Shown here: positions 3,574 through 18,172 of the stretch, one piece after another
Numbering within the stretch: position 1 is the stretch's first letter
Layout of the letters: each line of letters opens with the position of its first letter
Made by a program: the position numbers and the translations under genes
Virus record (IMG/VR): IMGVR_UViG_3300028887_000111
Location: 52,740-72,739 of that record
Origin: an uncultured virus (IMG/VR IMGVR_UViG_3300028887_000111)
Taxonomy: Duplodnaviria; Heunggongvirae; Uroviricota; Caudoviricetes
Strand: one strand, 5' to 3'
Length of the DNA stretch: 20,000 nucleotides
The notes under the pieces: model-generated
The model's database searches: none
Seen by the model: only the letters and a program-made list of their open reading frames with translations
What the model was told of the DNA's origin: nothing

Positions 3574-4710
3574 TCAAACAACCTTGATGCCAGTAATTTC
3601 TTCAAACACACTTGCATCAAAATTAGGAATATCCTTGACTGCAACTCTTTCATCTTCTGTCATATTATCCCACATAATACCACAAGCTGTTTTGAAATCA
3701 ACCGATTTGAGATAACCGCCAGTTGTTTCGTGTTCAGGATGTGCTTCTTTTTCTTCCGCCGTCATATTCTCACTGTAAATCCACCAGTCGTTCTCATACT
3801 TCCAATCCATAGCTCTTACAGCTAAGTTGCTATTAAAAGCATTTCTGTCAATATCTAATGGCTTGTTGAAAGCGCATAACGGTTGCTCAATTGAATTAAA
3901 AAAGCCAGTAGAGAAATCACCGCTGTTCCAATCACCGCTGTTCCAATTGCCGCTGTTGCAATTACCGCTGTTGTAATCACCGCTGTTGCGATTGCCGCTG
4001 TTCCAATTACCGCTGTTGTAATCACCGCTGTTGTAATCACCGCTGTTGCAATTACCGCTGTTGTAATCACCGCTGTTGCGATTACCGCTGTTGTAATCAC
4101 CGCTGTTGTAATCACCGCTGTTGCAATTACCGCTGTTGCAATTACCGCTGTTGTAATCACCGCTGTTGCAATTACCGCTGTTGCAATTACCGCTGTTGTA
4201 ATCACCGCTGTTGCGATTACCGCTGTTGCAATTACCGCTGTTGTAATCACCGCTGTTGTAATCACCGCTGTTGCAATTACCGCTGTTGTAATCACCGCTG
4301 TTGCGATTACCGCTGTTGCAATTACCGCTGTTGTAATCACCGCTGTTGCGATTACCGCTGTTGCAATTACCGCTGTTGCGATTACCGCTGTTGCGATTGC
4401 CCGTACAGTCCTTTCCTGTATTGGCTAAATCAAGAACCTCGTGCCAAGTAAGCTCCCTTAAAATTACGATTTCATCTGTGACGGATTTATCGCCTTTAGT
4501 CTCAACATTACCGATAGCTTCGACTTCTGCAACCTTATTGTTGCTGTTAAAGCCGTAATAATTGAAGCAATCTGAGACCTTCCGGCAGAAGTGAAATCCT
4601 GCACCACACATCTCAATATTGCCATCGTGCTTGAAAGTTTTGCCAACCTCGTACTGAAAACCTCTGCAAGTCCAGTCAGGGTTGAACACTTTGTAGCCTT
4701 TAATACTCAC
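3574..4710 (-). CDS. Pentapeptide (xNSG[N/D]) repeat protein, 378 aa
   Basis: N-terminal KGYKVFNPDWTCRGFQYEVG...GFHFC domain, 32 NSG-containing pentapeptides, globular C-terminus; GTG start with SD AAGGAGG. Confidence 0.88.
   Translation of the reverse strand: MSIKGYKVFNPDWTCRGFQYEVGKTFKHDGNIEMCGAGFHFCRKVSDCFNYYGFNSNNKVAEVEAIGNVETKGDKSVTDEIVILRELTWHEVLDLANTGKDCTGNRNSGNRNSGNCNSGNRNSGDYNSGNCNSGNRNSGDYNSGNCNSGDYNSGDYNSGNCNSGNRNSGDYNSGNCNSGNCNSGDYNSGNCNSGNCNSGDYNSGDYNSGNRNSGDYNSGNCNSGDYNSGDYNSGNWNSGNRNSGDYNSGNCNSGNWNSGDWNSGDFSTGFFNSIEQPLCAFNKPLDIDRNAFNSNLAVRAMDWKYENDWWIYSENMTAEEKEAHPEHETTGGYLKSVDFKTACGIMWDNMTEDERVAVKDIPNFDASVFEEITGIKVV
3916..4395. repeat. Coding tandem repeat, 32 x 15 bp
   Basis: Unit AT(T/C)RCCGCTGTT+(GCA/GTA/GCG/CCA) repeated head to tail; 480 bp / 15 = 32. 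Confidence 0.97.
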
Positions 4711-4778
4711 TATTATTCCTCCTTAAAACTCAACTTTTATTTGGTTAATCATTACCGCTAATTTGTTGTCTTGTAAAT

Positions 4779-5845
4779 TTAAAACAAAGCACAGCCTTGC
4801 CTCTTAAAGTCTGCTACTGCATTATCCCATGCCTCATTATCTAAGCAACAAAGTTCTTTCAGATGCTTCTTGCAGTAAATCTTGCTTGTTCCTCTGCCGA
4901 GAAGTTTCAGATTCATTGCAAGCACATCATTCTGTCTTACGTTCCTACCGCACACTTCGCAAGTCTTGTTGAAGTATTGCAAAGCCGTATCATAGTTGTC
5001 AAGTCCTTTGTGCTCCATAAACTCTGTCACAACTTCTTCTGTTGGTTCTGGTCTAAGTAAACCACCATTCCAAGCTCCGTTTACATATTCGTCTATAGTG
5101 CAATTCAGCTTAGTCCAGCGATTCTCCTGCGCAAAGACTTTGCGCAGGATGCTGCGCCATCGGTCATACGCCATGCGATACCAATACTTATCTAATACCC
5201 AAGTGTACTTGGTGTAATACGGGCAAGCCACTGAACACCCAACTCTACTATATCCCTTACGGTATTTAGGATTTATTTCAATGCCGTTTTTAAGAATATA
5301 GAGCCATATGTCAAGCTCACTCCACTTTCTTATAGGCAAGCAACTAAACCAATCACGATCTCCCCACTTTGGATTGTGCGATATATCCTGTCGGTCTGCT
5401 CTCTGCGCTGATTCGTCATTTCTCACGCCCATAAAGAAAAGCATCTGTGGTTCACTATCAAAGTATTCTATGCTCTTACCTTCCTTGAATACTGTACAGC
5501 AACCACGGCTGAATCTTGTGGGAATGAAATGCTCTTTGAAGATGTATTTGTAGAACCCAATGTCGGGATTGATAATTGTCCAGTCTTTATGAGCTTTTAC
5601 CATTTTATAGGTATCGCCTGTATCAAGAGTAGTGTTATTGAAGTGAACACCCACATCAGGTAAAACACGAGTTACCAAATCAAGAGTTACCATGCTGTCT
5701 TTACCTGTAGATGTAAATACTACTTTCTTGTGATTCGGATAGTCCTGTATCGCCTTGTTGATAACGCTCATTGAGTCTGCAATTCTGTCATCAAGTTCCC
5801 CACTGAGCCTTGCTATGGTCTGCTGCCAAGTCTCAAATTGTTGCG
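4779..5845 (-). CDS. PAPS-reductase-family (PP-loop, Fe-S) protein, body of the gene; its 5' end is inverted at 5846-6116
   Basis: STGKDS PP-loop, RGCC, GVRNDESAQR, PIRKWS, GYSRVGCSVACP and C-terminal CEVC/CKKH. Frame stays open upstream of ATG 5771 (no SD there) through the inverted repeat, with a stop at 5868-5870. Confidence 0.9.
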
Positions 5846-6116
5846 AAAGTTTGATTTTATTGCCAATTTAGCAACGTAGAATAGGCATTTCCCAGTGAAA
5901 GGAGAATGATAATGCAACCCATCTTCAAAGAGATGATTCAAATGTGGAGCGATTTAGGTTATCCTCTGCTGATAGAGGAAGGCAAGTATTGGCTTGAAAA
6001 CCACTTCGTCTGCGGATTTACAGCCGATGGTGAACTTCACAAGCTGTATAAATACAAGGTGGCAGACGATTTAAGCATTGAGATAACGCCTTACAAGTCG
6101 AATAAAATCAAACTTT
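5846..6116. mobile_element. Putative invertible DNA segment (271 bp) bounded by perfect 16-bp inverted repeats
   Basis: AAAGTTTGATTTTATT (5846-5861) is the exact reverse complement of AATAAAATCAAACTTT (6101-6116); inversion restores an in-frame fusion. Confidence 0.85.
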
Positions 6117-6118
6117 AA
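5906..6118 (+). CDS. Inverted N-terminal fragment (68-70 aa) of the PAPS-reductase-family gene
   Basis: Only credible + strand ORF in the window; SD AAAGGAG at 5898-5904 (ATG 5912 best spaced); ends at the right inverted repeat (NKIKL*). Confidence 0.85.
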   Translation: MIMQPIFKEMIQMWSDLGYPLLIEEGKYWLENHFVCGFTADGELHKLYKYKVADDLSIEITPYKSNKIKL

Positions 6119-6423
6119 TGTCTTGTCTTTACATCAGAAAAGTCAAACTTAGGTTTATTCTTTAATTTCTCGTTGCATTCATCAATGGCTTTGTGTAGAT
6201 CGGACTTCCTACCCCATTCAATATACCCTGCAATATTTGTGATAAGATAGAATATATACATTACTACCATAGGAATATTCATAGTGCCGAGAAAGTTTAC
6301 TCCCAACCACGCTATGTTCCCTAATATCCATATCCACCAGCCAGAGCGTTTCTTATGGGCGATAAGTACATTACCGCCCAAGCTGAATACGCTGCCGAGA
6401 ATTGAAAATATTAAGACTATCAC
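6115..6423 (-). CDS. Small membrane protein, PnuC / nicotinamide-mononucleotide-transporter-like, 102 aa
   Basis: Three hydrophobic segments; K.R.GWWIWILGN..W and NIAGYIEW patterns. Confidence 0.6.
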   Translation of the reverse strand: MIVLIFSILGSVFSLGGNVLIAHKKRSGWWIWILGNIAWLGVNFLGTMNIPMVVMYIFYLITNIAGYIEWGRKSDLHKAIDECNEKLKNKPKFDFSDVKTRH

Positions 6424-7244
6424 TTCTTGTTATCCTCTGCGATTATCTCTTTTGCAAGCTTCTGAGCTGCTTCTTCAAAGGCAATTTCTTTAGCTCTCTT
6501 GCGGAGAAGATAACGCTCGTGTCTTGCCTTACGACGCTCAACGTGCCATGCTTCGTGTTCCTGTTTTTCTTCTACTGTATTAAGAACCTTGCCACAGTAG
6601 ATACAAGTGCGTGATAATTCATCTTCACATCTATTCAATTTGACAGCTTCGGCGTATGCTTTGTAAAAATTACCTCCACAAATTGCATTCGCAAGAGCTT
6701 CAAGAACACCCTGTCTTTCATCATAATCTGCCTTATCACAAGTTGCAGAACCCTTAACGGTAGTGACCTTATCAAAAACATTGCCACTAAGCAACTCAAT
6801 ATTTGTTGTCATTGTCGGGATAGTGCCGTTGCAACTCTTATCCACTCTCGTTCCTTCTGTTACATAAAATGTAAATTTCATTGAATTTTTACCTCCATTT
6901 TTTGCCGATATACCGTCGTTTGAAAATGCGTTAAAATGTTCTGCTAACTCTTTATTTAATCTCTCTGCATATTCTTCGGCTTGTTTTTCATTAAACACAT
7001 ACTCCACATTCGGGAATAACACGGATCTAATAGCTACTGGTTCAAGCGTATCTCCCCTACACCACCAACCATGATTATTTTGGCAAAGACCACCGCAGCT
7101 ATGTTTATAACCACTTTCTTCAAAATCAACTGCATAATCACCACCTGAAGAAATGCCACGAATAATGCCTACTTCACCAACTTCGACATTATCAATGTCT
7201 CTTTGAACTACATAACGCACTCTGTCTCCAACTTTAAACTCCAT
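6420..7244 (-). CDS. Hypothetical protein with N-terminal SH3-like region and C2H2-type Zn finger, 274 aa
   Basis: FKVGDRVR...GII N-terminus; CIYC-x12-H-x3-H; SD AAAGGAG. Confidence 0.7.
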   Translation of the reverse strand: MEFKVGDRVRYVVQRDIDNVEVGEVGIIRGISSGGDYAVDFEESGYKHSCGGLCQNNHGWWCRGDTLEPVAIRSVLFPNVEYVFNEKQAEEYAERLNKELAEHFNAFSNDGISAKNGGKNSMKFTFYVTEGTRVDKSCNGTIPTMTTNIELLSGNVFDKVTTVKGSATCDKADYDERQGVLEALANAICGGNFYKAYAEAVKLNRCEDELSRTCIYCGKVLNTVEEKQEHEAWHVERRKARHERYLLRKRAKEIAFEEAAQKLAKEIIAEDNKK

Positions 7245-11060: not shown

Positions 11061-12956
11061 TCACGCTCCAAACACTTCTTGTTCCGTTTCTTTTATTTGC
11101 TCCATTACCACGCATTCAGGTGGGTTCTCAGCCAAGCAGTTGCCCTTATCCCAAGAATACACGCGATTTAACTCGTCCTCGTCAGTGAAAAATCTGCGGC
11201 TTGGATAGTCAAAATTCAGATTAACCGATACTCCATTTTTGCCGAGGTATCTGTCCTTAATTATCTTAACGGTAGCACCGCCCTGTGCGTTGCGCTCCAT
11301 ACCAAGCATACGGCAAGAGAGATTAGCGATATTCATTGAGCCGGAGGCATCGTCCATACCGAGACTTTCATTGGTCTTTCTTGAGTGTGCCACGAGGAAT
11401 ACTGCCACGTTGTACGTCAAGGCAAATCTTACGCACTTGCGGACGATCTCTGTCTGGCGCATAAGGTCAGAGTCACAGCCTTTACAGGATATGCAAGTCA
11501 AGTTATCAAGTATCACAAGGGAGCAACCGTAGCGGCGCACACATATCTCGGCAGTCTTGAGAATGTCGTCTATGTCAATGCTTTCTCCGTCTTTGTAGAG
11601 ATAAAGCTGTCCTTTGTAGAAGTCCAATATCTCTTTACGGGCAGCAGGGGTAACACGATAATACGGAGTTCCCTCCTTGCTGATAAAAGAATTGATATTG
11701 CGACGACCTGCTATGCTGTACATAATCCAGTTGGCTTGGAGCTGATTTGAGAGTTCCTGCGAGTACATAAATAACGACTTGCCGTCATTTAGTGTTTCCG
11801 CAGTCAATTGTCCCATGAGCGATGTTTTACCTGACGCTGCTTTAGAAAATACGGTTGTTAGAGAGCCGGAAAAATTACGCATTAAGACTTTATCCAGCTC
11901 TTTCAGTCCAAAGGTAACACCGTCCACTTCGTCGAGGTTATAATCTCTGACGTTGGAGAAGTCTACGACGGTAGGGATAGGCGCATTTATTGCCTCTAAA
12001 ACACATTCCAGCACCTTTTCTTTGCCGTACCAATACATAACTTCGTTGGTGTCTGAGACTTTAATCTCTGTGCCATCAGGCTTCTTGAATGAAGTTGGGT
12101 ATTGAACCGCGCGGCATCGCCATTGTCCCAATCTCGCCACAACAGCCTTATTGAATTTGCGACCTGCGGCATCGTTATCGCCAGCCACTACTATGGTGTC
12201 AAACTGTTCAAGGAAGTCCCACTGAGCGTCTATCCAAGACATATCGGCACACCCAAAAGGAATGCTGACTGAGTTCTTGTAGCCAGACTCAATAGCAGCG
12301 AGACAGTCAATAGCCCCCTCTGTTATCAATAAAGGCTCTGACGGATTGGCAAGATGCTGTAAAAACAGAACGCTTTCGTGGTCAGTATCTTTTTGAACCC
12401 AACATTTTGCACCTTTGCCCTTTTCTACTTTATGGGCAGGACGGAGCTTGACCGTCTTGAGAACGTCATTGCTGTCAATGAATGGAAACTCAATATTGCC
12501 GTTACCGTCACATGAAAGTCCGGCATAGTCAACAACAGCCTTGCTGATGCCACGCTTTGCCAGATATTCGTAAGCGGGTGTCATATCAGCGTGAGTAAGG
12601 GTAGGATAGCGATAAGTCTTATCCTTTTTTACGCCGACCTCCGGCATTGGTATATCCATACCGGCAAGCTCAAAGACCTTTGTAGCAGCTTCGTTGAACG
12701 TCATTCCTTTGCCTTGTATATAGGAATCGAGGAGATCAACGCTCTTGCCGCAAGAAAAACAATGAAACCTCAGTCTCTTTTGGTCAAAAATCAGACTCGG
12801 AGTTTTCTCGCTGTGCCAACAGCACAATGCTTTTTTATTCTTGCTGTCATACTGCTCAAGAGAAAGAACATCAGCCATTATATCGGCGGCATTTATGCCT
12901 ATTTTCTCTTTTGCCTCCGCTATAAGTTCCTTATCTATCATCTTCATCCACCCCAC
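11061..12956 (-). CDS. Bifunctional DNA primase-helicase (Zn finger + TOPRIM + SF4 helicase)
   Basis: CCWHSEKTPS...CFSC Zn finger; ITEGAID and GDNDAAG TOPRIM; Walker A AASGKTS; Walker B ILDNL; VAHSRK. Confidence 0.92.
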   Translation of the reverse strand: MGWMKMIDKELIAEAKEKIGINAADIMADVLSLEQYDSKNKKALCCWHSEKTPSLIFDQKRLRFHCFSCGKSVDLLDSYIQGKGMTFNEAATKVFELAGMDIPMPEVGVKKDKTYRYPTLTHADMTPAYEYLAKRGISKAVVDYAGLSCDGNGNIEFPFIDSNDVLKTVKLRPAHKVEKGKGAKCWVQKDTDHESVLFLQHLANPSEPLLITEGAIDCLAAIESGYKNSVSIPFGCADMSWIDAQWDFLEQFDTIVVAGDNDAAGRKFNKAVVARLGQWRCRAVQYPTSFKKPDGTEIKVSDTNEVMYWYGKEKVLECVLEAINAPIPTVVDFSNVRDYNLDEVDGVTFGLKELDKVLMRNFSGSLTTVFSKAASGKTSLMGQLTAETLNDGKSLFMYSQELSNQLQANWIMYSIAGRRNINSFISKEGTPYYRVTPAARKEILDFYKGQLYLYKDGESIDIDDILKTAEICVRRYGCSLVILDNLTCISCKGCDSDLMRQTEIVRKCVRFALTYNVAVFLVAHSRKTNESLGMDDASGSMNIANLSCRMLGMERNAQGGATVKIIKDRYLGKNGVSVNLNFDYPSRRFFTDEDELNRVYSWDKGNCLAENPPECVVMEQIKETEQEVFGA

Positions 12957-13668
12957 TATAAACGCAATTCAGTCTGCAAAGGCTCTCACAGTAAAACTTA
13001 TCAACCTTGCACTCCCAGTCAGTCGTAGCCAGTATTGTATCAACGCCAACCTTGAACCAGTCTATCGCCGCCGTGTAGTCGCCCTCTTTGAACAGCTCCT
13101 CGTCCCACGGCTCATCGCACCGGAACTTATTGAATACTAACTTATACGGAAACTCGCCGTACATTTCCTTTATGCGGTAAGCGTACAGATAAAGCTGGCG
13201 CATATAGTCGGCACGTTCCTTCTTGGACTTCCAAGCACCGTGCGACTTGTAATCTATGAGCACAATTCCGTTCTCGTCACGCACTATTAAGTCCGCAAAT
13301 CCGATAAACTTATGCCCACCTATCACAGCTTTCAGCTCTTGCTCTACCCCGATTATCTCACCGGCAATGCCGTCAAAATTCTGGAAGTATGCAAGAGTCT
13401 TGTCGTAGAAAGCCTTATACATATTAAAATATGGGAACTTCTCAGTCACCCACATATCATATTCTTGTTCAAATGTGTCCGCAAGCTCAAACTCGTAAAG
13501 CTCACCCTTCGCCCAGCGTTCTAAAATGCTGTGAGCCAGTGAACCGTGTTGTGCAAAGGCATTATCGCCCTCAGTTATATCCTCAACATATTTCAGATAG
13601 AACGCCCACGGACAAGTCTCGTAGAGTTTGAGAGAGCTATACGACCACTCTTTTTTAGTTAAGTCCAC
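12931..13668 (-). CDS. PD-(D/E)XK exonuclease (RecB/AddB/Cas4-like), 245 aa
   Basis: WSYSSL..CP, G...H, GFADL...IDYKS, QLYLYA, C-terminal Cys cluster. Confidence 0.88.
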   Translation of the reverse strand: MDLTKKEWSYSSLKLYETCPWAFYLKYVEDITEGDNAFAQHGSLAHSILERWAKGELYEFELADTFEQEYDMWVTEKFPYFNMYKAFYDKTLAYFQNFDGIAGEIIGVEQELKAVIGGHKFIGFADLIVRDENGIVLIDYKSHGAWKSKKERADYMRQLYLYAYRIKEMYGEFPYKLVFNKFRCDEPWDEELFKEGDYTAAIDWFKVGVDTILATTDWECKVDKFYCESLCRLNCVYSGVDEDDR

Positions 13669-14143: not shown

Positions 14144-14866
14144 TTACTTAGATTTCTTCTCGGACTGAAAGTCCTTAATGTCCAGTTTGTCAAGCTCCTC
14201 GTTAAGCCTTTCAAGAAGCTCATCGCTCAGATTCATCGGGTTCTTGCAACCGCCAAAGTTTGCCTGTAACCAAGCAGCCAGCTTATCGCGGTCATAGCCG
14301 TCCTTAATCTTAGCCTTAAACTTGCCAATAGCGTCCTGTCTGTCAAGTCCGTCCAACACCTTCTTATCCTTTGCAAGATCAGTGTAGTCATCCTTTAACC
14401 ATGATGATAAGCCATATCCGAGGTACGCTATATTCTTTGCCACGCAACGCCTGAGAGCCTTGTTTACGTCTGTGCTCTTTACGTTTGCCGCAGGAACAGC
14501 CTGATTGCGGTTGTCCATTATAGGCAGGGTGCAGTATTCCTCAATGCCCTGTGACGGTATCTTAACGCAGGTCTTAACCCAACAGGTATTACCGTCTGTG
14601 CCGTAGGGAAGTTCAACCTCGACAAGCTCACTATGGTATGTCTCCCCTTCTGCTGTTTTAGAGGCAAGCACCGAGACTAACTTCTGAGTCTTAAAAGTAC
14701 ACTCCTCAATAATGGCATCAGGATAATACATACGCAGTTTTTCGATTGAACGCGCCCACGGAACATAAGTAACAGAATACTTACCGTCGCCCTTAGACAC
14801 CACATCATTTGTTGTGTCGATGCTCGCCAGCGTTTCAAACACCGACTTCTTCTTTGTTTCTGACAT
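14144..14866 (-). CDS. Single-strand annealing protein (Sak/Rad52-like, DUF1071-type)
   Basis: TYVPWA, LPIMDNRNQA, VNKALRRCVAKNIA..GYGL; located next to ssb and an exonuclease. Confidence 0.8.
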   Translation of the reverse strand: MSETKKKSVFETLASIDTTNDVVSKGDGKYSVTYVPWARSIEKLRMYYPDAIIEECTFKTQKLVSVLASKTAEGETYHSELVEVELPYGTDGNTCWVKTCVKIPSQGIEEYCTLPIMDNRNQAVPAANVKSTDVNKALRRCVAKNIAYLGYGLSSWLKDDYTDLAKDKKVLDGLDRQDAIGKFKAKIKDGYDRDKLAAWLQANFGGCKNPMNLSDELLERLNEELDKLDIKDFQSEKKSK

Positions 14867-16377: not shown

Positions 16378-16403
16378 GGTTCACCTCCGATAAAATGTAG
16401 CTT

Positions 16404-16637
16404 TCATATCTTTTCAAATTCTTCCTTTAACTTTATCCACTCGTCTATATACCATTGTTTTACAGCCTTTAAACAATCATCAGGCAAAAGGTCTATGTAG
16501 TCGCTCACACCATCGCTACACACTCCATGTATGTTAAAATGGTCGTACTGATTGTCATTGAGCATTTTAATTATATCATCGTACTCTGACATTTTCTTTC
16601 TTGTAGCAATAGCCTTATCAAGTTTATCATTGGTCAT
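16404..16637 (-). CDS. Hypothetical protein, 77 aa
   Basis: SD GGAGGTG; flanked by dyad sites. Confidence 0.65.
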   Translation of the reverse strand: MTNDKLDKAIATRKKMSEYDDIIKMLNDNQYDHFNIHGVCSDGVSDYIDLLPDDCLKAVKQWYIDEWIKLKEEFEKI

Positions 16638-18087: not shown

Positions 18088-18172
18088 CTTCATCCTCCTC
18101 ATAAAAGTGAAATTTCATGTAATTTTTAGAGCCACTTTTTGGCTATTCTACGTCGTTATTTTACCGATAAAA

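Follow-up and report, generated by a model that had tools for sequence, protein, structure and literature searches.

The PAPS-reductase-like gene of an uncultured virus of the Caudoviricetes was found split, with its 5′ part lying inverted beside the gene body. The window, by which we mean the whole 20,000-nt stretch of DNA analyzed here, is the final 20 kb of the 72,739-bp phage record IMGVR_UViG_3300028887_000111. Judged from sequence comparison, a 239-nt segment of it is the inverted 5′ part of one gene that is whole in most relatives. The segment lies between two 16-nt repeats, one upstream of the gene and one inside it, and these are rather probably a pair of recombination sites that flips a 239-bp module comprising the gene start. 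At 100% identity, the record matches part of G1, a complete 104.7-kb genome with terminal repeats; G1 and a second phage genome, G2 (G001 and G002), were both rated complete.

The inverted repeat is perfect. Its arms (5846-5861 and 6101-6116) are 16 nt long, 100% complementary and separated by 239 nt, and it is the longest inverted repeat in the window among arms lying 20-400 nt apart. An inverted repeat of at least 16 nt arose in 1 of 200 windows simulated with a Markov-1 model. The right arm falls in a junction dyad whose left arm, on the coding strand, contains the TAA stop codon of the upstream PnuC-like open reading frame (ORF); the left arm lies within the reductase-like gene, in its minus-strand frame IGNKIKLSQQFETW. 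The sequence-only reading had named both breakpoints as dyad sites with identical spacers. The right site, ATAAAA-TCAAAC-TTTAAT, indeed is as claimed and belongs to a strongly enriched motif, and the opposite-strand ATAAAA-TCAAAC-TTTCGC was confirmed within the codons for NKIKLS (Table 1). However, the left site is not a full dyad: it has one good arm, the spacer and TTT, and its second arm, TTTCGC, misses the consensus, which makes it a half-site plus spacer. Its likeness to a dyad is, moreover, the same fact as the 16-nt repeat and is not separate evidence. The claim that this is the only pair with matching spacers in opposite orientation held in the complete genome, where no other dyad has an inverse copy matched by both the spacer+TTT and the AA+spacer probes; the identity extends over 16 nt. 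G2 holds one such doubly probed pair, of 11 nt (site 87676). Otherwise, the search for inverse partners of G1 and G2 dyads returned only single-probe matches of 8-10 nt, which look like chance.

The frame of the gene body opens at 5867, its first ATG is at 5771, and by eye no ribosome site precedes that ATG. Within the segment starts the sole sizeable plus-strand ORF, an orphan of 68 aa with a Shine-Dalgarno sequence (AGGAGA, 5900-5905) and a further in-frame ATG upstream at 5906. Its stop codon and that of the PnuC-like ORF overlap inside a dyad arm. The homologue P0001 (423 aa, 95% identical) reads unbroken from MQPIF to ITPYKPNKIKLSQQFETW and spans both window pieces in frame, and 95 of the 120 best homologues are 411-432 aa long. 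Besides codons 1-63 of the 423-aa gene, the flipped segment contains the ribosome site and a promoter-like element, ACGTAGAATAG, which may act as the promoter. Since the body is left with neither promoter nor ribosome site and is separated from its N-terminal domain, the gene is probably off in the window state.

In an AlphaFold model of P0001 (mean pLDDT 89), a 60-residue N-terminal domain and a linker precede a fold like that of the PP-loop PAPS/APS reductases. Residues 61-70 form a low-confidence linker (mean pLDDT 62, versus at least 90 on either side), and the intragenic site falls in this predicted linker, after the N-terminal domain. Foldseek matched the model to CysH and APS reductases (E ~3e-9). 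Together, the PF01507 PP-loop domain and the predicted fold place the gene in the PAPS reductase family. We do not call it CysH, because the protein missed every NCBIfam equivalog cut-off.

Both orientations occur in natural DNA

Among 51 IMG/VR loci with relatives of the gene, the N-terminal part is on the same strand as the body in 46 and on the opposite strand in three (L001, L002 and L036); it was not found in the other two. L001 is the window's own phage, 100% identical over everything that the window's record covers. L002, also flipped, belongs to G2, a different 99-kb phage that matches G1 only in patches of 67-91% identity. A 41.8-kb contig of sequencing run X2, about 93% alike, must be flipped as well, because it is collinear with the window over 5401-6554. 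The unflipped form was found at L003, L060, L061, L064, L065, L070 and L071 and in contigs of runs X3 and X19. Both orientations are therefore present in nature, the flipped one in three assemblies (L001, L002 and X2) and the unflipped one in at least seven contigs. In Logan contigs of four runs, which drop minor variants, X1 (the source run) and X2 were flipped only, and the listed X3 and X19 pieces were unflipped. A metagenome scan returned 12 loci, namely four chance matches, seven unflipped relatives and G1 itself. The junction dyad of the window, spacer included, also stands before the gene in all seven unflipped relatives, behind six further upstream contexts (seven including that of the window).

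The inversion has occurred at this repeat more than once. Flipped L002 and unflipped L064 agree at all 239 nt of the segment and over the initial 58 nt of the body; the window differs from both at 10 of the 239 positions. A patch spanning a breakpoint cannot pass by ordinary exchange between genomes of opposite orientation, so the segment must have inverted at least twice here, or inverted once and reverted.

We also compared codons in the gene body. The window and L002, both flipped, differ by 35 synonymous and 9 nonsynonymous changes, and two unflipped genomes by 52 and 13. By this measure, the gene in flipped genomes shows no sign of decay. At L039 and L042-L049 the gene frame is broken under genetic code table 11, leaving open frames of 260-305 aa, although tblastn alignments start at residue 10 or 11 of the 362-aa query and continue to residue 362; the frames may be shifted, or a different genetic code may be in use.

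The third flipped IMG/VR locus, L036, has an inversion of its own. It encodes a 45%-identical homologue on a 173-kb contig (locus 3827-4023), and an internal N-terminal piece (3846-4004) is flipped. The breakpoints read ATAAAA-CAGAGG-TTTCAT and, as reverse complement, ATCGAA-CAGAGG-TTTTGT, i.e., the spacer is the same and the arms are exchanged. The former is the sole match to the dyad pattern in the 9-kb locus (0.22 expected); this is a post hoc observation with n = 1. Since CAGAGG sites are absent from L035, the nearest unflipped relative, the state before this inversion is not directly visible. The same 173-kb contig carries a second, intact copy of the gene (L040).

Inverse repeats with matched spacers in the gene family

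We determined the longest exact inverted repeat between positions -130 to 0 and +100 to +500 of 318 ORFs of at least 150 aa from 31 sources. It was usually 7-8 nt long. Repeats of at least 12 nt were found in 5 of the 318 ORFs, and four of these five were the reductase-like gene. In the group of the window the repeat is AAAGTTTGATTTTATT, read as NKIKL. Group C has the 18-nt repeat AAACTTGATTTTATTGTG in another frame, read as STIKSSF, and group B, which includes a prophage of the cultured Hominimerdicola aceti (locus L089), has the 13-nt AGTTGATTTTATT, which lies 30 codons further downstream and gives NVIKSTL. One DNA motif is thus translated in different frames and at different positions.

These three lineages, with repeats of 13, 15-16 and 18 nt, make up one clade. 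A second clade (41-47% identical) comprises six lineages with repeats of 9-11 nt, in which a dyad lies about 103-124 nt before the start codon and an inverse spacer+TTT(T/C)A at +149 to +168. Every lineage of the second clade has its own spacer. In a set test of 29 lineages, nine had an upstream dyad, and in 7/9 the lineage's own spacer+TTT recurred in inverse orientation in the 5′ part of the gene. In the controls, cross-lineage matches numbered 1 of 252 and direct-orientation copies 0. The co-varying spacers are GTTTGA, ACTTGA, AGTTGA, CGTCAA, CCGAAA, GTAACG and ACTTAA. Two more lineages fit with one deviation each, L023 in the arm and L093 in the spacer.

The repeat is a conserved and co-varying feature across relatives in both clades. 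Partner sites share their spacer in the window pair, in the family lineages and, with CAGAGG, in L036. Conserved arms, a spacer that is free to vary but matched, and an orientation that is always inverse are what site-specific inversion would predict; an operator or plain homology would not.

Dyads as crossover points between unrelated cassettes

The junction dyad upstream of the gene belongs to a motif that is abundant in the window. ATAAAANNNNNNTTTWAT, with at most one mismatch, gave 26 matches (13 sites, both strands counted) versus 1.09 expected, and ATAAAANNNNNNTTTNAT (ATAAAA-N6-TTTNAT), with no mismatch, gave 15 matches at 12 distinct sites versus 0.05 expected. On the coding strand the motif is ATNAAA-N6-TTTTAT, with 18 sites of at most one mismatch in the record. 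It has the form of a tyrosine-recombinase core site, with inverted arms around an asymmetric spacer of 6 nt. In 11 of these 18 cases the right arm runs directly into a Shine-Dalgarno sequence and start codon, and the stop codon of the previous gene often lies within the left arm. The dyad itself has no promoter hexamers.

The dyads mark the points at which related phages part. Seven different neighbors lie upstream of the gene; the final stop codon of each makes up the left arm, and the shared sequence begins with the spacer. On the downstream side, the window and L064 stay identical exactly as far as the right edge of the dyad 4723-4740 and are unrelated beyond. These are also the points at which loose contig ends of X3 and X19 lead into other sequences.

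Under a looser pattern, G1 has 43 gene-strand sites and G2 has 35. They have 26 spacers in common, all in the same order. As controls, neither the opposite strand nor reversed spacers gave any shared spacer, and letter-shuffled spacers gave 1.09 on average, with a maximum of 5. Of the 26 shared dyads, 17 have two 60-nt flanks that are each at most 50% identical, although three of the 17 have Shine-Dalgarno-like spacers that may be convergent. At 11 of the 26, the ORFs on both sides are without a blastp match and of different length. Across the 17 junctions the two arms had identities of 0.89 and 0.92, compared with 0.30 for the left flank, 0.49 for the ribosome site and 0.33 beyond it; the spacer is 100% identical by selection. 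We conclude that the dyads are crossover points, because G1 and G2 share 26 same-spacer dyads in the same order, many of them between unrelated genes.

Other genomes share fewer spacers with G1, namely 3 of 6 in G3 and 3 of 9 in G5. Neither of the more distant genomes, G6 (group C) and G7 (group B), has a spacer in common with G1 or G2; common "addresses" are thus confined to closer relatives. The spacer GCTACA has 20 matches in IMG/VR, about seven of the junction type. At the GCTACA dyad, L132 is a recombinant, since its left flank is of the L135 type and its right flank of the G1 type.

Several features near the dyads were noted as well. The dyad 6864-6881 lies within a 274-aa ORF (6420-7244), and DNA homology with G2 begins exactly there (G1 65384), so this ORF may be a fusion of two cassettes. 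At three sites, by eye, TTTTAT stands 16 nt ahead of TAGAAT, which would allow a -35/-10 reading of the dyad. A promoter-like element with a small hairpin adjoins some dyads only: at 18120-18160, 495-530 and 2240-2280, the order is element, small conserved hairpin (AGCC-N7-GGCT) and dyad, an arrangement that recalls the PeSLs of T4-type phages. A further copy of ACGTAGAATAG, at 1451-1461 on the plus strand, is directed against the genes and lies 13 nt from the palindromic dyad 1420-1437, the same spacing as at the reductase-like gene and at 18153; it could serve as an antisense promoter or have been flipped as well. The 10-12-nt repeats flanking it (TTTTGCAATC) are direct, not inverted. A reading of the dyad as a stable RNA hairpin was set aside, the predicted energies being 0 to -4.8 kcal/mol, with 3 of 13 sites without structure.

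The genes of the window lie almost all on the minus strand. They include Sak, SSB, an exonuclease, a primase-helicase, Pol III alpha, the PnuC-like fragment and the reductase-like gene, together with a pentapeptide-repeat protein and four DNA methyltransferase genes. The PnuC-like ORF matches only profile positions 113-174 of 175, and it looks like a gene fragment because only the last third of the profile was matched. The pentapeptide-repeat protein (3574-4710; DUF7666 and Pentapeptide_2) has internal DNA repeats of about 90 nt with 90-93% identity and is 378 aa long in the window versus 308 aa in G2. Words near-identical to the window were found in sequencing runs from bovine and goat gut, and prophage homologues of the reductase-like gene occur in Hominimerdicola and Lachnospiraceae genomes. 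The GenBank phage collection gave no near match to the region or to the 70-aa ORF, and its PAPS-reductase matches were distant only.

Table 1. Window features discussed in the text
Feature	Position	Strand	Remark
Body of the PAPS-reductase-like PP-loop enzyme gene	4779-5867	-	PF01507, E 4.3e-26
Putative invertible segment, 239 nt	5862-6100	+	flipped relative to gene body
Orphan 5′ part, MQPIFKEMIQMW...ITPYKSNKIKL, then stop	5912-6118	+	90% identical to N-terminus of P0001
Promoter-like element ACGTAGAATAG, -10-like TAGAAT at 5877-5882	5874-5884	+	within segment; 8 copies in G1
Junction dyad, ATAAAA-TCAAAC-TTTAAT on plus strand, ATTAAA-GTTTGA-TTTTAT on coding strand	6102-6119	-	right site of the pair
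Intragenic partner site, ATAAAA-TCAAAC-TTTCGC	5843-5860	-	codes for NKIKLS in enzyme linker
Dyad downstream of the reductase-like gene, ATAAAA-GTTGAG-TTTTAA	4723-4740	-	
Junction dyad with position-specific spacer GCTACA	16390-16407	-	common to four phage records (G1, G2, G3, G5)
Dyads shared by G1 and G2 (G1 40.8-97.3 kb)	window sites including 472, 1420, 2222, 4723, 6102, 6864, 16390, 16654, 18101, 18790, 19908		
PnuC-like fragment, 102 aa	6115-6423	-	upstream neighbor of the reductase-like gene
PD-(D/E)XK exonuclease	12931-13668	-	likely partner of Sak
Sak-like single-strand annealing protein	14144-14866	-	candidate for a rival, homology-driven mechanism

Possible mechanisms and their meaning for the phage

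That the dyad is a recombination site and that the pair gave the inversion, as the sequence-only reading had proposed, is now backed by the homologues, by both orientations, by spacer co-variation and by the same-spacer dyads between unrelated genes. In the mechanism that we propose, site 1 would be the 18-bp junction dyad (arms ATNAAA and TTTTAT, 6-nt spacer) just upstream of the gene's promoter, and site 2 the inverse copy of spacer and one arm in the flexible linker. Recombination between them would flip the module with promoter-like element, ribosome site and codons 1-63. The forward state would yield the 423-aa PP-loop enzyme, and the window state would leave the orphan 68-aa ORF and a body that is probably off. 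Because the flip leaves the sites unchanged, it could reverse. A site-specific recombinase would read the arms and need matching spacers, and the flip would then be a selected on/off switch.

Candidate enzymes were sought in the genomes. G1 encodes one Xer-type tyrosine recombinase (PF00589; G001 22744-23271), which is not adjacent to the segment and has orthologues in G2 (89%) and G6 (62%). No serine recombinase (PF00239, E ≤0.1) was matched in G000, G001, G002 or G003. It is also possible that Sak and the exonuclease offer a homology-driven route or that a host recombinase acts.

A number of observations weigh against a selected, recombinase-driven switch. Ten other records, some of them repeat-bearing, have only distant relatives of the Xer-like recombinase (24-33% identical) or none, and the idea that one recombinase orthologue tracks the repeat-bearing lineages did not hold when tested. 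Conservation stops at 6 bp per arm, the flanks being 30% identical over the 17 junctions, so that arms of about 9-13 bp were not found; 6-bp arms are short compared with known tyrosine recombinase sites. Among the contigs listed for each run there was one orientation, and the source run gave the flipped one only, rare variants being lost in contigs. The PnuC-like upstream neighbor is common to all three flipped assemblies, as would be expected if they descend from a single event and recombined afterwards. The other repeat-bearing lineages yielded no flipped member; for the two nearer ones, groups B and C, site-pattern scans re-found 9 of 11 IMG/VR loci, all unflipped, and no contigs beyond the known ones. 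The pattern of the metagenome scan included the intragenic site, and therefore this site is present in its seven unflipped relatives by construction. Rampant mosaic exchange in patches of 200-500 nt could import selected variation into flipped genomes and so blunt the argument from lack of decay. Finally, 2 of 7 unflipped close relatives have the gene broken otherwise: in L070 (2312-3654) it is disrupted by an internal replacement with a changed frame, and in L071 (2312-2680) it is cut off after residue 117, inside the PP-loop motif. It may therefore be that losing the gene is simply tolerated or favored, with inversion as one route to it.

A rival view is that the inversion is an accident at a conserved regulatory linker. 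The dyads would be intergenic expression signals that also serve as short homologies for Sak and the exonuclease, for RecA or for template switching at the replication fork, and the inversion would be a loss-of-function event in a dispensable gene. The ribosome sites, start codons and stop codons at the dyads suit this view, as do the Sak and exonuclease genes of the window, the intense homologous exchange seen in the mosaic patches, the alleles L070 and L071, and the single genomic context of all flipped assemblies; furthermore, shuffling of PeSLs via homologous recombination is described as established in T4-type phages (PMC2839356, PMC4122927). What it leaves unexplained is the inverse copy of the own spacer, kept in 7 of 9 lineages and never direct. 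In addition, the 9-11-nt repeats of the second clade are very short for homology-driven exchange, an arm-binding regulator gives no reason for position-specific spacers between unrelated genes, and no relaxed constraint was seen in flipped genomes. We consider the accident unlikely, yet it is a live rival.

The repeat might also be kept for another reason, with the inversions as by-products, but both versions of this idea seem improbable to us. As RNA, the arms would pair at -14.4 kcal/mol, and in group B the upstream copy stands directly before the ribosome site and is thus probably transcribed, as long-range pairing between leader and coding region would need. In the group of the window, however, the upstream copy precedes the -10-like element and would be outside the gene's own transcript; moreover, the identity begins exactly at the spacer and ends within one arm, and by eye the pairing is neither extended nor wobble-compensated. 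DNA looping through a second operator has precedents in lac and gal, which have auxiliary operators within coding regions, but looping does not explain why the spacers are identical or why the orientation is always inverse. Against both versions stand the real inversions, at least two, at exactly these sites. Given that the window derives from a metagenome and that the contigs of the source run show one orientation, an assembly or amplification artefact has to be weighed too, and it is highly improbable: the same arrangement occurs in three assemblies differing by 4% and about 7%, the 16-nt repeat is below the usual assembly word sizes, and both junctions are clean and in frame.

Beyond the paired sites, we tentatively entertain a bolder view, address-coded recombination. 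In it, 18-bp dyads would bound the accessory slots of the early region, with slot-specific 6-nt spacers, and an arm-reading recombinase would both swap cassettes in register between co-infecting phages and flip the 5′ module. This would amount to a natural recombinase-mediated exchange of non-homologous cassettes, and the same enzyme would flip the reductase-like gene because that gene holds an inverse copy of its own slot address.

The sites resemble loxP, FRT and dif, whose arms measure 11-13 bp, in having inverted arms around a 6-nt asymmetric spacer, in partners that share the spacer, and in inversion between inversely oriented partners. Heterospecific spacer variants of those sites are used for cassette exchange, and in the same way different spacers at different positions would keep exchanges in register. 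The dyads differ in their 6-bp arms and in an Xer-like recombinase that does not co-occur beyond the nearest relatives. With integrons they have in common a cassette array in which each cassette is bounded by an imperfect palindrome, and an expected tyrosine recombinase; integron attC sites are far longer, recombine as folded single strands and carry no position-specific address. An integron integrase/attI platform was not seen, although no search was aimed at one. The G segment of phage Mu and the C segment of P1 are likewise phage-borne invertible DNA that alters a coding region, but there Gin and Cin, which are serine invertases, swap tail-fiber C-termini at longer sites, whereas the search of G000-G003 gave no Resolvase-family gene and the target would be an accessory enzyme turned on or off. 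Known phage inversions switch tail fibers. Viral invertons outside tail fibers appear so far only as a suggestion, with 16 candidate contigs (PMC13501310).

Partial intergenic invertons and programmed inversions that alter genes are described in bacteria (Chanin et al., PMC10028968; Milman et al., PMC9881135). As outlined there, they too involve a short segment with one inverted repeat outside and one inside a gene, a flip that alters the product, and both orientations in nature. The case presented here differs from these accounts in lying in a phage genome, in moving the promoter and N-terminal domain of a PP-loop enzyme rather than swapping alternative domains, and in having no adjacent invertase gene. 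The term "PAPS" is absent from the main text of Milman et al. (PMC9881135), and our search of one literature collection returned no paper joining PAPS reductase with inversion. The PeSLs, described as promoter/stem-loop cassettes between the accessory genes of T4-type phages (PMC2839356, PMC4122927), are alike in that, as with the dyads, unrelated sequences are exchanged at short conserved motifs lying between variable accessory genes. In those descriptions, however, PeSLs are composite promoter-terminator units, alike at all positions, that recombine by homology. The dyads are 18 bp long, form hairpins that are weak at best, have position-specific spacers and one inverse partner in a gene, and lack the combination of promoter and terminator stem-loop. 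A single narrow search of the same collection returned nothing on position-specific junction spacers.

The inversion is a variant closest to known kinds, namely bacterial invertons and PeSL motifs, and address-coded cassette exchange is the bolder reading. A recombinase with such short addressable sites, if it exists, would be a useful tool. The finding also bears on the origin of phage genome mosaicism, with 18-bp junctions whose position-specific spacers are kept between unrelated genes; targeted in-register exchange predicts such kept spacers. If true, an inversion that toggles an accessory PP-loop enzyme would be a new viral use of phase variation. Because the gene is located in a block of DNA methyltransferase genes, the enzyme may have a DNA-modification or anti-defense function, and a switchable enzyme could let the phage population hedge between hosts.

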